The position numbers were made by a program, and so were the translations under genes. Shown in pieces: positions 8,109 through 25,520 of a DNA stretch of 34,998 nucleotides (the first letter of the stretch is position 1; every line of letters starts with the position of its first letter). Below the pieces are notes generated by a model that ran no database searches, had not been told where the DNA came from, and worked only from the letters and a program-made list of their open reading frames with translations. The stretch spans positions 28,873-63,870 of the forward strand of contig JAYOMI010000007.1 in the NCBI GenBank assembly GCA_038120765.1, given 5' to 3'. The stretch comes from Rhodospirillaceae bacterium (GTDB lineage Bacteria > Pseudomonadota > Alphaproteobacteria > MPNO01 > UBA830).

Positions 8109-8645
8109 TCAGCGGCCCGTCGGGGAGTCCGGCACGTCGGCGGTTTGCTTCGCCCGCCATGCGTCCAGCTTTTTCGCCACCTTGTCGTCCTGCAGCGCGA
8201 TGATGGAGGCCGCCATAAGGCCGGCATTCTTGGCGCCGGGCGTTCCGATGGCCAGCGTCCCGACGGGAATGCCGCCCGGCATCTGGACGATGGAAAGGAG
8301 GCTGTCCATGCCGCTCAGCGCCTTGCTTTCGACGGGCACGCCCAGCACCGGCAGGGCGGTCATCGCGGCGACCATGCCGGGCAGGTGCGCCGCACCGCCG
8401 GCGCCCGCGATAATAACATTCAGGCCGCGCTCTTTCGCCGATTTGGCGTATTCGGCCAGCCGGTCCGGCGTTCGGTGGGCAGATACGATTTTCGTCTCGA
8501 ACGGTACGCCCAGCGCTTTCAGCATGTCGACGGCGTTCTTCATCGTCGGCCAGTCCGATTTCGAGCCCATGATGACCCCGACGACGGGCGCTTTCGCCGC
8601 CGGTTTGCGCCGATTGGTGGATCCCGCCGTTTTACCCGCAACCAT
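8109..8645 (-). CDS. purE: N5-CAIR mutase
   Basis: [24 protein letters not shown] and [11 protein letters not shown] motifs; ATG 8645 with SD AAGGGGAG. Confidence 0.97.
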
Positions 8646-12033: not shown

Positions 12034-12648
12034 CTAGAGTTTGAATTCCGGCATTGCGGGCGTTGAGGCTTTCGGCGTTTCCTCGATCACCGGCGCTTCC
12101 GATGTGGAAACGTAGCCGGCGCGCTTCACTTCCTTGTCGAGGTCCTGACGATTGCACAGGCCGAGGCCCACCGGATCACGCGCCGTGATTGCCGCCATGT
12201 TCCAGTGAGACCGGTCGCGGATCGCCGAGATCGTCGGCTTGGTGGTGCCGATAAGACGCGAGATCTGCGCGTCTTTCAGATTCGGGAAATGCTTCACCAG
12301 CCAGGCAATCGCATCCGGCTTGTCGCCGCGTCGGGCGACCGGTGTGTAACGCGGCCCCTTGGTGCGGCTGGCCGGGCGAGGCACCGTCGTGACCGCCATC
12401 TTAAGGCGTTCGGCCGGGTCTGCCTCGCAGCGTTCGATTTCTTCCCTGGTCAGCTGACCGTTGACGATCGGGTCGTACCCGACCATGCCGACGGCAACTT
12501 CGTCATCGGCGATGCTCTGAACTTCCAGATCGTGGAGACCGCAGAACGCGCCGATCTGGCGGAACGTCAATGCGGTGTTTTCGATCAGCCACACGGCGGT
12601 GGCTTTCGGCATCAGCGGCTTGGTGCTTTCGTTTGCGTCACGGCTCAT
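12034..12648 (-). CDS. trcR: DUF1013 family cell-cycle transcriptional regulator (TrcR-like)
   Basis: PLMPKATAVWL.ENTALTF.QI..FCGLH.LEV, GPRYTP..RR.DKPDAI.W and IGTTK.TI..IRDRSHWN motifs. Confidence 0.88.
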   Translation of the reverse strand: MSRDANESTKPLMPKATAVWLIENTALTFRQIGAFCGLHDLEVQSIADDEVAVGMVGYDPIVNGQLTREEIERCEADPAERLKMAVTTVPRPASRTKGPRYTPVARRGDKPDAIAWLVKHFPNLKDAQISRLIGTTKPTISAIRDRSHWNMAAITARDPVGLGLCNRQDLDKEVKRAGYVSTSEAPVIEETPKASTPAMPEFKL

Positions 12649-12709: not shown

Positions 12710-13729
12710 TCAGCCTGCGTCTTCGACCGTCAGCATTATCTTCCCGATATGGCTGCTCGATGCCATCAAGGCGTGGGCCTCGGCGGCATTCTCCAGCGGG
12801 AAGGTTTTAAAAATCAGAGGCTTGATATCGCCTTTTTCGAATAACGGCCAGAGATTCTCGTACACCGCCTTCGCGACCGCCCCTTTTTGTTCGGTCGTCC
12901 TCGGGCGCAGCGTGGATCCGGTGTAGTGAATCCGCTTGGCCATGATGGTCGGTATGAACAGTTCGACCTTGGCGCCTTTCTGTACCGCGACCTGCACCAT
13001 GCGGCCATCGGGCGCAAGGACTTCGAGGTTCCGGTTGAAATAATCGCCGCCGACCATATCCATCACGACCGAACAGCCGATGCCGCCGGTCGCTTCCTTG
13101 ACGACCTCGACGAAGTCTTCCTCGGTATAGTTGATCGCGCGGGTCGCACCGAGCTCTTCGCAGGCTTTGCACTTTTCGGCGTTCCGCGCCGTGGTGAAGA
13201 CCGTTGCGCCGAAGGCCTTCGCGACCTGTATGGCGGCGGTGCCGATACCGCCCGATCCGCCATGAATCAGAATGGTATCACCCGCCGTCAGATGCACGCC
13301 GTCGAACAGGTTCGTCCAGACGGTGAAGAAATTCTCCGGGATGGCCGCGGCTTTCAGCATATCGTAACCCTTGGGCAACGGCAGGGCCGTTGCGGTGGGA
13401 ACGACGCAGTACTCGGCATAGGCGCCGCCGGAGACAAGGGCGCAGACCTCGTCGCCGGGTGCGCATTCCGTGACGCCGCTGCCGACCGCGACGACGGTGC
13501 CGGCGAGTTCGAGGCCCGGAATATCGGTCGTGCCGGGCGGGGGCGGGTAGGCCCCCTTGCGCTGCATGGTGTCCGGAAAATTCACGCCCACGGCCGCGGT
13601 CTTCACGAGCACTTCATCCGCGCCCGGCACCGGGGTCGGACGTTTCGCAGGCTTCAATACCTCGGGGCCGCCGAACTCGGCGATCTGGATGACGGTCATG
13701 GTATCGGGTATCTCGTAAGACACGGACAT
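12710..13729 (-). CDS. NAD(P)H-quinone oxidoreductase, PIG3/MDR family
   Basis: GVNFPD..QRKG.YPPP, PENFFTVW, HGGSGGIG, GSTLRPR and HIGKI motifs. Confidence 0.92.
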   Translation of the reverse strand: MSVSYEIPDTMTVIQIAEFGGPEVLKPAKRPTPVPGADEVLVKTAAVGVNFPDTMQRKGAYPPPPGTTDIPGLELAGTVVAVGSGVTECAPGDEVCALVSGGAYAEYCVVPTATALPLPKGYDMLKAAAIPENFFTVWTNLFDGVHLTAGDTILIHGGSGGIGTAAIQVAKAFGATVFTTARNAEKCKACEELGATRAINYTEEDFVEVVKEATGGIGCSVVMDMVGGDYFNRNLEVLAPDGRMVQVAVQKGAKVELFIPTIMAKRIHYTGSTLRPRTTEQKGAVAKAVYENLWPLFEKGDIKPLIFKTFPLENAAEAHALMASSSHIGKIMLTVEDAG

Positions 13730-13814
13730 CAACGCTCGGAAATGATGGAAACTAAGGTTGCAGGTCTATCGCCTCGGCGGCACACTGGCAAGCCCGGAGA
13801 GAGGAGAATTGCAG

Positions 13815-13997
13815 GTGCTGGAAAACGACGATCTACCGAAAAACATGCCGAAACCCAAACGGGACCTCGATCCGATCTCAATCGAGGAACTGCACGAGTA
13901 TATTGCGGAGATGGAGGAAGAGATCGAGCGGGTTCGTGCCGAAATCGCCCGCAAAGAGGCCCATCGGGCCGGGGTGGAATCGATCTTCAAATCCTGA
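13815..13997 (+). CDS. DUF1192 family small coiled-coil protein
   Basis: DL..ISIEEL..YIA.MEEEI.R.RAEI..K......AxSxFK-like pattern; GTG start after SD GAGGAG. Confidence 0.82.
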   Translation: MLENDDLPKNMPKPKRDLDPISIEELHEYIAEMEEEIERVRAEIARKEAHRAGVESIFKS

Positions 13998-14199
13998 ACC
14001 GGACCGTCGCGGCCCAAAAGCGGCCCAAAGCGGAAAAATTAACGCGTTTCGGGAATTAATTTATTTCAAGATCGGGTGACCTTCCTTTGAGTCTTGCAGT
14101 AAAAATTCATAACATATTGATTTATAATAGAAAAAGTACGAAATCCCTGGCGCACGAGAATTATGCCAGGTTGAGTTTTATGAAAATTTCCCCGGTGTT

Positions 14200-14215
14200 T
14201 TAAATTTTTGTTAAC
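14200..14215 (+). promoter_or_regulatory. Perfect CtrA full site
   Basis: TTAA-atttttg-TTAAC within an AT-rich intergenic region upstream of the sRNA candidate and rcdA. Confidence 0.75.
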
Positions 14216-14239
14216 CATTTCGGCCTTATCTTCTTTTTT

Positions 14240-14337
14240 GACGGTCCGGGCGACCGGGCCGTCGAAAAGGATCCTCATCCCATCCTTTTGACGCCTCCCT
14301 GTTGACTTGAGCCGCCCTCCGGGGCGGCTCTTTTTTT
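14240..14337 (+). ncRNA. Candidate trans-acting sRNA with anti-SD (CCUC.UCCC / CCUCCCU) seeds
   Basis: Hairpin 1 GACGGTCCGG-gcga-CCGGGCCGTC; hairpin 2 AAAAGGAT-cctcatccc-ATCCTTTT; single-stranded CCTCCCTGTTGACTT; terminator GAGCCGCCC-tccg-GGGCGGCTC-T7. Confidence 0.7.
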
Positions 14338-14387
14338 AGTTTACGCTTTGTTCAGGGCATAAACGGTAAGGTAAACATCCTCTCAGG

Positions 14388-14834
14388 ATGAAAAACCAGC
14401 CAAATATGGAACGAAACGACATGTCCGGTCCGCTTGCAGCCTTTATTGAAGACGCTTATCAGGACACGCTGTCGCTGATGACCGAACTGCGCGATTTTCT
14501 CGCGGAGGTGCAGGCGGCGCCCGAAGACCCGAATGCCGACCGCGCTCCCGATGTGCGGGCGCGGATCGTCAAGGAGATTTCGTCGGTTACGCGTGATCTG
14601 ACAGAGGCTATGGCGTGGCTCTTGCTGCAAAAGGCAGTGGCTGCGGGCGAAATAACCCCCGAAGAGGCGGAAACCCGCGCGGACGGGCTGCTGACGCGGA
14701 TTGATGCCGGTCGCGTCGCCGCCGCAGACGGTGCGCCTCTGCCGGTGGAAATCCGCGGATATATGGATCGCAGCCGCCGGCTGTACGATCAGGTGATCAG
14801 CCTGCGCGAAATGGCGTCAAAACAGGCCGGCTGA
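14388..14834 (+). CDS. rcdA: DUF1465 family, regulator of CtrA degradation (ClpXP adaptor)
   Basis: EI..VT..LTEAMAWLLLQKAV..GEI and LP......MDRSRRLY motifs; DUF1192-rcdA><rpmE arrangement typical of Alphaproteobacteria. Start could be 14421. Confidence 0.8.
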   Translation: MKNQPNMERNDMSGPLAAFIEDAYQDTLSLMTELRDFLAEVQAAPEDPNADRAPDVRARIVKEISSVTRDLTEAMAWLLLQKAVAAGEITPEEAETRADGLLTRIDAGRVAAADGAPLPVEIRGYMDRSRRLYDQVISLREMASKQAG

Positions 14835-14882
14835 CGCGAAATCGCTGCTGCGGCACCTGAAATCGGCGAATGATCCGTGAAC

Positions 14883-14914
14883 GCAAAAAAGGACGCCAGG
14901 GGCGTCCTTTTTGC
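14883..14914. terminator. Bidirectional terminator between rcdA and rpmE
   Basis: GCAAAAAAGGACGCC-agg-GGCGTCCTTTTTGC. Confidence 0.88.
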
Positions 14915-25361: not shown

Positions 25362-25520
25362 GGCGGGGCTGTCCGGTGCGATGGGTCTCTACATCCCTGG
25401 GGCCAATACATCTCTCTCGGGAGCTGTCTCTGCGGGGATCTTGGTCTCAGCACGCGGCACCCACCTGTCTCGTACAGGCCACAGAGGATAACATAGACTG
25501 CCGGCTGTGATGGCTCCGCC
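25362..25520 (+). ncRNA. ssrS: 6S RNA
   Basis: Pairing termini GGCGGGGC/GCTCCGCC; alphaproteobacterial 6S blocks ATCCCTGGGGCC, GGGAGCTGTC and GGCACCCACCT; canonical zapA-ssrS-ygfA position. Confidence 0.9.

Follow-up and report, generated by a model that had tools for sequence, protein, structure and literature searches.

The small RNA (sRNA) called SmelC671 or Sm84 in Sinorhizobium meliloti and ReC71 in Rhizobium etli, which Rfam holds as BjrC1505 (RF02356), represents an alphaproteobacterial family that has been known since 2008-2012, with Northern and RNA-seq evidence in S. meliloti and Methylobacterium extorquens. Here, a divergent orthologue of this sRNA is described from a 34,998-nt stretch of DNA of a Rhodospirillaceae bacterium (GenBank assembly GCA_038120765.1, contig JAYOMI010000007.1, positions 28,873 to 63,870 of the forward strand), the whole of which is referred to below as the window. 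The element, of about 98 nt, lies between a DUF1192 gene and rcdA (DUF1465) and is preceded by a box of the CtrA type. As an RNA, the element adds one ordinary member to a known family and is missed by Rfam by ~10 bits; the conserved CtrA box that accompanies it is the only point that may be new.

In S. meliloti, sm84 was predicted between SMc03988 and SMc03989 and gave a Northern signal of ~80 nt (Valverde 2008; PMC2573895). SmelC671, the same RNA, has been described as a trans-encoded sRNA of 100 nt at 2986421-2986520 (+), with its 5' end one base before hairpin 1 and a predicted shape [][][], in which three hairpins are formed and 21 nt are left unpaired ahead of the terminator (Schlueter 2010; PMC2873474). 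The family model SmelC671 (ReC71 in R. etli) is reported to show 'extensive microsynteny' (Reinkensmeier 2011; PMC3927594). Among the matches listed there, the sRNA of Sinorhizobium and Rhizobium is flanked by DUF1192 to the left and DUF1465 to the right, and the right-hand neighbour is DUF1465 also in Agrobacterium, Ochrobactrum, Brucella, Mesorhizobium, Parvibaculum, and Methylobacterium; the main text adds relatives in Bradyrhizobiaceae. In M. extorquens, BjrC1505 was confirmed by Northern in a preprint that also cites a predicted acetolactate synthase target (10.1101/2022.01.24.477521). No function was found described for the SmelC671/BjrC1505 family in the excerpts of the literature searched. 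The words 'CtrA' and 'cell cycle' are absent from the main text of PMC3927594, and no paper linking CtrA to SmelC671/BjrC1505 was found in a search that stopped short of the supplements of other chromatin immunoprecipitation sequencing (ChIP-seq) studies.

Two further systems are relevant for comparison. MmgR and the SuhB of Sphingopyxis, of the alpha-r8 family, are described as Hfq-dependent anti-Shine-Dalgarno (anti-SD) regulators, and mmgR is reported to be under the control of NtrC and AniA, not of CtrA. CcnA of Caulobacter crescentus, in turn, is reportedly activated by CtrA. It serves as an earlier example of a small RNA connected with the CtrA circuit (PMC8959179), and the likeness would be one of mode of action, not of membership; the BjrC1505 model found no match in the Caulobacter control genome.

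The element in the window closely follows the plan of the SmelC671 family. Like SmelC671/Sm84, ReC71, and BjrC1505, it stands between DUF1192 and DUF1465/rcdA on the same strand and measures ~100 nt; Pfam searches of the open reading frames (ORFs) of the window recovered the microsynteny of DUF1192, sRNA, and DUF1465/rcdA on one strand. As in SmelC671/BjrC1505, three hairpins are present together with a ~20-nt unpaired C-rich stretch ahead of a Rho-independent terminator. The core UUUGACGCCUCCCUG lies in the seed GACGCCUCCCUGUUGACUU taken together with the three U before it. A TTAA-N7-TTAA-type box lies ~80-88 nt upstream of the seed in both cases. However, the sequences of hairpins 1 and 2 are different, the loop of hairpin 2 reads CCUCAUCCC here and CUCCUGU in the Bradyrhizobium type, and the organism belongs to another order than the hosts of SmelC671/BjrC1505. 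Owing to the shared synteny, three-hairpin shape, and UUUGACGCCUCCCUG core, the element is assigned as a divergent orthologue of SmelC671/Sm84/ReC71, Rfam BjrC1505, and not as a new family; the 50-bit cut-off of the Rfam model is an operational threshold and not a biological feature. A preliminary description of this DNA could not tell whether the sRNA belongs to a family already described, and had named a characterised family with the same synteny as what would refute novelty; SmelC671/Sm84/ReC71, which is BjrC1505, is such a family, and the novelty is given up.

Rfam was applied at gathering thresholds to the window and at permissive thresholds (E up to 10) to 13990-14400, where 19 matches were obtained, all under their own cut-offs. 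SorY (RF02651) scored 43.5 bits (cut-off 111) over the 3' two-thirds only, BjrC1505 39.6 bits (cut-off 50) over 14186-14337, suhB/MmgR (RF00519) 36.6 bits (cut-off 41), and SorX 28.4 bits (cut-off 46.6). The 5' third of the RF02356 model (positions ~1-55) aligns to the box and the -10 region, and not to the RNA mapped for S. meliloti. The model thus appears to include ~55 nt of promoter DNA, which would lower the scores of divergent members such as the one in the window. When 78 genomes of the order were searched with RF02356, 32 matched at E up to 0.001, at the same loci as found by BLAST; three genomes of sister families exceeded the cut-off (G026, 52 bits; G030, 52 bits; G038, 51.5 bits), and the others form a continuous series of scores down to 33 bits. 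Of 151 genomes sampled from the class, eight scored above the cut-off, with a best value of 92.9 bits, and these class-level loci share the core, the terminator, and the box at the same place.

Moreover, a model built from the copies of this order (R1) scores the window at 117.7 bits. R1 was also compared with a set of loci from named genera, obtained by a pattern scan of public genomes that returned at least 80 loci, the true spread being wider; all counts on named loci given here and below hold among the matches listed. It recovered 79 of the 80 listed loci, including those of Bradyrhizobium, Mesorhizobium, Brucella, Phyllobacterium, Stappia, Roseibium, Parvibaculum, and Sneathiella. The single locus missed, L115, is a chance match on a Piscinibacter contig. 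Of the 80 listed loci, 61 have a DUF1192-like ORF upstream on the same strand, in keeping with the microsynteny of the family. A second RF02356 match in the organism's own genome (G000:C50, 29.1 bits) is devoid of the C-rich seed and was rejected as a paralogue.

The structure of the RNA is supported by both folding energy and covariation. The 102 nt of 14236-14337 fold with -51 kcal/mol, against -32.3 +/- 3.7 kcal/mol in 200 shuffles (z = -5.1), none of which was as stable. BLAST of 14150-14345 against 41 genomes, namely the own genome and 40 relatives, detected the element in 22. With the own genome excluded, it was present in 12/24 genomes of family f1, 0/5 of f2, 2/2 of f3, 3/5 of f4, and 4/4 of f5, and in close relatives the match starts at 14195-14198 (query 46-49), just ahead of the box. 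Covariation was assessed on an alignment of 23 copies from the window's order. In these homologues, 91.7% of the cells pair in the three-hairpin structure, compared with 29-55% when the partners were slid by 1-3 columns as a control, and eight pairs have changed on both sides, a number equalled in 1 of 500 shuffles. Hairpin 1 accounts for five of these, out of its 10 pairs, with 90.2% of cells pairing, and the terminator pairs in 94.6% of cells with two compensatory pairs. The long form of hairpin 2 pairs in 90.1% of cells and shows one compensatory pair; a short alternative, GGAU-CCUC-AUCC, pairs in 73.9%, is favoured by RNAalifold, and is extended in f5.

GGAUCCUCAUCCcAUCC and UUUGACGCCUCCCUG are nearly invariant across the 23 copies, and the core UUUGACGCCUCCCUG, invariant or nearly so, recurs in other families of the class and in the named genomes, from Bradyrhizobium to Sneathiella. 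These results support the view that a genuine small-RNA gene is conserved here, complete with a terminator and with C-rich stretches resembling anti-SD sequences. They also bear out much of the preliminary description: the GNRA-capped 10-bp stem, the 8-bp stem displaying CCUCAUCCC, the unpaired GACGCCUCCCUGUUGACUU, and the terminator with U7 are all present as it had given them, and the conservation of structure and box in relatives that it had proposed to check was found in the copies of the order. The TTAA-N7-TTAAC at 14200-14215, which it had placed ahead of the ~98-nt element, is likewise found there.

This box, TTAAATTTTTGTTAAC, is the only TTAA-N7-TTAAC on either strand of the 34998-base window; shuffles give an expectation of 0.04, and 4 of 100 had at least one. 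Among the 23 copies of the order, TTAA-N7-TTAA is perfect in 18 and has at most one mismatch in 21, at -84 to -89 from the seed. Of the listed named loci, one was set aside for lack of upstream sequence; 76 of the remaining 79 carry a box with no more than one mismatch, located between -87 and -65 relative to the seed, and in 32 it is perfect. A proportion of ~0.5% would be expected as background from the same loci, and as these are related genomes the counts describe conservation and not independent trials. In the class-level sample, all 11 of the listed loci carry a box with at most one mismatch, as read by eye. The half-sites and the 7-nt spacing are kept, and the letters of the spacer vary. 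Both tandem copies of the sRNA in G040 keep a box of their own. Furthermore, in family f5 the sRNA and its box are followed by a convergent rpmE. DUF1465 was not found in the four f5 genomes, which are 78-98% complete, and tblastn detected no RcdA at the four f5 loci or at L034; RcdA lies downstream in f1, f3, and most f4 loci. The data support the conclusion that the box is conserved with the sRNA at a fixed distance and forms part of the sRNA unit.

Further observations are consistent with a function of the box in CtrA-dependent transcription. The own genome contains 35 TTAA-N7-TTAA sites where ~1.4 would be expected from the frequency of TTAA, an enrichment of ~26-fold, and it encodes a CtrA orthologue that scores 429 bits (cut-off 350). 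A consensus scan of 13700-14900 found no complete sigma-70-type promoter, as is expected for an activator-dependent promoter. By analogy with S. meliloti, where the 5' end precedes hairpin 1 by one base, the start in the window would fall near 14239. The box would then lie at about -39 to -25, over the -35 region, and TATCTT at -12 to -7.

Published work has already connected CtrA with this interval, on behalf of rcdA. Conserved control of rcdA by CtrA has been predicted (Brilli 2010; PMC2877005). In S. meliloti, a CtrA motif is given at 2986559-2986573, after the sRNA and upstream of the rcdA starts 2986607 and 2986616 (Schlueter 2013; PMC3616915); with 2986664, three rcdA start sites are known downstream of the sRNA, and no start-site row near 29864xx was found in the supplement text of the same paper that was covered. 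ChIP-seq has located CtrA in the rcdA promoter region, and rcdA expression was unchanged on CtrA depletion (Pini 2015; PMC4433202). The peak in the table of that paper, 2986298 ('SMc03988 ov'), is assigned to rcdA. It lies ~120 nt upstream of the SmelC671 5' end and ~260 nt from the rcdA-proximal motif 2986559-73, the expected sRNA promoter being the closer of the two. Among the 77 listed named loci whose downstream sequence is long enough, 11 have a second perfect box between terminator and rcdA, and 19 have one there with no more than one mismatch; the 11 represent the Rhizobiaceae, Phyllobacteriaceae, and Brucella type.

On this evidence, the element is best read as a free-standing gene, in a marine alphaproteobacterium, for a trans-acting anti-SD sRNA of ~98 nt, driven from the CtrA box and ended by its own terminator, a reading to which we assign a probability of roughly 60%. 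Transcription would begin at ~14239; in its promoter, no -35 hexamer can be recognised, and a full CtrA box is present at 14200-14214. Because this box stands in for the hexamer, phosphorylated CtrA would be expected to turn the sRNA on late in the cell cycle. The transcript would end at the strong intrinsic terminator and display two C-rich anti-SD stretches, of which CCUCAUCCC is a loop and UUUGACGCCUCCCUGUU is unpaired and invariant. By pairing with ribosome-binding sites of the GGAGG type, these may repress translation. Within this reading, homology, the covarying structure, synteny, and the joint conservation of box and RNA are shown by the sequences, and the start site, the dependence on CtrA, the mode of action, and the targets are inferred. 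The CtrA activation, the repression of GGGAGG-type sites, and the attenuation of rcdA put forward in the preliminary description likewise stand as proposals.

Several points weigh against this reading. The BjrC1505 score of the window stays below the gathering cut-off, and two of the 23 loci of the order (G015 and G012) have two mismatches in the box. No target is named, and a scan of the own genome for seed matches near start codons did not discriminate. The RNA data of the organism consist of metatranscriptome contigs, which cannot resolve transcript ends or a discrete RNA: X15 covers the sRNA, X17 comprises short pieces at 14101-14281, the sRNA stretch is missing from X16 and X18, and the contigs may hold DNA. 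The coordinate of the ChIP-seq peak is of limited resolution. Moreover, a sigma-70-type promoter has been annotated for Sm84 (PMC2573895), and on S. meliloti arrays the sense probe was strongly induced under several stresses, which suggests other inputs.

The sRNA might, alternatively, be a by-product of rcdA expression. Here, the CtrA-dependent promoter would serve rcdA, the element would be a cis-acting leader or attenuator with regulated read-through, and the short RNA would be what remains of terminated transcripts. The tandem order is nearly universal, with an RcdA-like ORF downstream on the same strand at 72 of the 80 listed named loci, and in the window the longest rcdA ORF begins only 50 nt after the U-tract. 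In addition, 58 of 77 listed named loci have no second box (at most one mismatch) between terminator and rcdA, the comparative prediction of PMC2877005 gives conserved CtrA control to rcdA, and contig X15 bridges 13750-14602, although such contigs may hold DNA and are unable to show a single transcript. However, the proposal is weakened because the f5 genomes keep sRNA and box beside rpmE where DUF1465 was not found, because each tandem duplicate keeps its box, because rcdA of S. meliloti has its own downstream start sites and an mRNA unresponsive to CtrA depletion, and because the 17-nt unpaired stretch is invariant across families, as is typical of a trans-acting seed. The strength of the terminator, with eight G-C pairs and U7, also speaks against a leader. 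We consider this explanation unlikely.

An equally improbable alternative would retain the free-standing sRNA and dispense with CtrA. The promoter would then be of the sigma-70 or a stress-responsive type, and the TTAA half-sites would be A+T-rich promoter or UP-like elements or the site of another regulator. Besides the sigma-70 promoter predicted for sm84 and the array induction mentioned above, it is in favour of this explanation that the sRNA literature examined states, in the excerpts covered, no link to CtrA. Nevertheless, half-sites and 7-nt spacing are kept while the spacer varies, the consensus scan revealed no sigma-70-type promoter, the motif is ~26-fold enriched genome-wide, and ChIP-seq gave a CtrA peak in the DUF1192-rcdA region of S. 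meliloti (PMC4433202).

It is highly improbable that the element is a paralogue or member of suhB/MmgR (alpha-r8) or of alpha-r14/cuckoo, both of which the preliminary description had brought into play. Its 3' end does resemble the former, as had been noticed. With MmgR/suhB and with SorY and SorX of Rhodobacter it has in common an unpaired CCUCCCU(G)UU..ACUU directly before a G+C-rich terminator, and the suhB, SorY, and SorX matches given above fall on its 3' half. R1 also matches the organism's own mmgR locus with 33.2 bits, and the CCUCCCU-terminator module is therefore common to both families. In contrast to these RNAs, however, the element stays below every cut-off, has another 5' part, and has another synteny, its 5' hairpins and surroundings being of the SmelC671/BjrC1505 type. 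The own genome holds a true suhB/MmgR match elsewhere (G000:C106:4246-4322, minus strand; locus L001, 1501-1577, minus strand), at 46.4 bits above the cut-off of 41; therefore the element of the window is not the mmgR orthologue. That locus adjoins an N-formylglutamate amidohydrolase (FGase) gene, which we take to be the usual mmgR neighbour, and a GNAT acetyltransferase gene is near. The affinity to alpha-r14/cuckoo was not borne out: this family is absent from the 19 Rfam matches obtained for 13990-14400 at E up to 10, and the element has a single C-rich loop CCUCAUCCC as against the repeated hairpins with CCUCCUCCC loops of alpha-r14/cuckoo. As a side observation, a TTAA-N6-TTAA occurs ~130 nt upstream of the C106 mmgR locus, with a spacing that is wrong for CtrA.

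Regarding targets, 9658 of 11445 candidate sites in the own genome pass -13 kcal/mol in the seed scan, 1945 of them with an ORF behind. Such a scan is indiscriminate without gene calls and conservation, and hence no target is claimed. The rcdA leader of the window was rejected as a candidate, its pairing with the seed amounting to -11.6 kcal/mol, which 92.75% of 2000 random genomic windows reach or exceed in strength. At 72 listed named loci, the seed pairs with the 300 nt after the terminator at a mean of -21.7 kcal/mol against -20.8 kcal/mol for controls, a difference that does not discriminate. GAGGCGT, the complement of the invariant ACGCCUC, was found 4-12 nt before the rcdA start at 16 of these 72 listed loci, and at 17 in total, one of them without a nearby ATG, against 9 of 432 control stretches. 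Neither the window nor any of 17 rcdA-linked loci from its order has this motif. Judged from the distribution of this motif, targeting of the neighbouring rcdA is lineage-specific and not applicable in the window.

A recurrent ACAGGGAGGCTTCAC match in the seed-complement search of 25 genomes was also rejected as a target because it represents the complementary strand of a further sRNA-like gene. This third element of the own genome (G000:C42 ~8190-8260, minus strand; locus L232, 483-561, minus strand) shares the 3' module, with GCCUCCCUGUUAAACUU followed by a terminator and U7, and stays below the cut-offs (SorX 28.6 bits, suhB 25.9 bits). In many relatives its reverse complement is found a single time in each genome; f2 genomes in which BLAST found no rcdA-linked sRNA are among them.

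The possible significance of the locus lies in the box. A full CtrA box accompanies the sRNA across many alphaproteobacterial families, including genomes in which rcdA was not found. If CtrA drives the sRNA, a widespread sRNA for which no function was found in the literature searched would become an output of the cell cycle, published assignments of CtrA sites to rcdA would need re-reading, and the puzzle of S. meliloti, in which CtrA is bound near rcdA and rcdA mRNA is unchanged, would receive a simple answer. It may tentatively be suggested, as a possibility we would not yet favour, that the 'CtrA site of rcdA' is in most lineages the promoter of the sRNA, and that the family, widespread and timed by the cell cycle, constitutes an RNA-based arm of the CtrA circuit. 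ACGCCUC would then pair, in Bradyrhizobium-type lineages, with GAGGCGU on the Shine-Dalgarno sequence of rcdA, and a CtrA-switched sRNA would dampen translation of the adaptor that destroys CtrA. In the window's order, the pairing with rcdA is absent, and the sRNA would therefore act on other targets there.

The features of the locus are compiled in Table 1. The gene for TrcR, a transcriptional cell-cycle regulator, lies 1.5 kb upstream, so that two cell-cycle genes and the sRNA are found inside 3 kb; the gene after rcdA in the window is that of L31 (rpmE).

Table 1. Positions, strands, and basis of assignment of the features of the DUF1192-rcdA locus and its surroundings in the window.
Feature	Position	Strand	Basis or remark
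DUF1192 gene (left flank)	13758..13997	+	Pfam PF06698, E 2.5e-20
CtrA-type box TTAA-N7-TTAAC, TTAAATTTTTGTTAAC	14200..14215	+	unique in window; conserved in relatives
Possible -10 element TATCTT (inferred)	14227..14232	+	T-A-T-rich block aligned in relatives
Small RNA, ~98 nt, SmelC671/Sm84/ReC71/BjrC1505 orthologue	14240..14337	+	fold, homology, covariation
Hairpin 1, 10 bp, loop GCGA	14240..14263	+	sequence variable, structure conserved
Hairpin 2, 8 bp, C-rich loop CCUCAUCCC at 14273-14281	14265..14289	+	
Unpaired seed GACGCCUCCCUGUUGACUU	14290..14308	+	invariant or nearly invariant columns
Intrinsic terminator, 9 pairs (8 G-C), loop UCCG, U7	stem 14309-14330, U7 14331-14337	+	terminator scan
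TTTACGCTTTGTTCA, family-conserved block directly after terminator	14340..14354	+	box-like, 2 mismatches
rcdA (DUF1465)	14388..14834	+	Pfam PF07323, E 8.4e-13
TrcR (transcriptional cell-cycle regulator) gene	12034-12648	-	PF06242

The true start of rcdA is probably the ATG at 14421 and not 14388, because ATGTCCGG is kept there in relatives of the same genus and tblastn alignments start at residue 12. The block TTTACGCTTTGTTCA is conserved among the aligned f1 copies and occupies the place at which Rhizobiaceae-type genomes carry the second perfect box and S. meliloti its published CtrA motif; from its sequence and place, it may belong to a promoter of rcdA's own. At Bradyrhizobium-type loci (L092, L087), conserved blocks GGAAACCATA..GCTGGACTC..GCGCAATGATTTGTTCATCATAA were noticed 100-200 nt after the terminator. 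For S. meliloti rcdA, an RpoE2-type promoter is predicted in the interval matching the GGAAACCATA..GCGCAATGATTTGTTCATCATAA blocks, which points to a stress-sigma input to rcdA. Elsewhere in the window, a 6S RNA (RF00013) at 25363-25520 on the plus strand, with 61.9 bits, is the sole Rfam match above its gathering cut-off.

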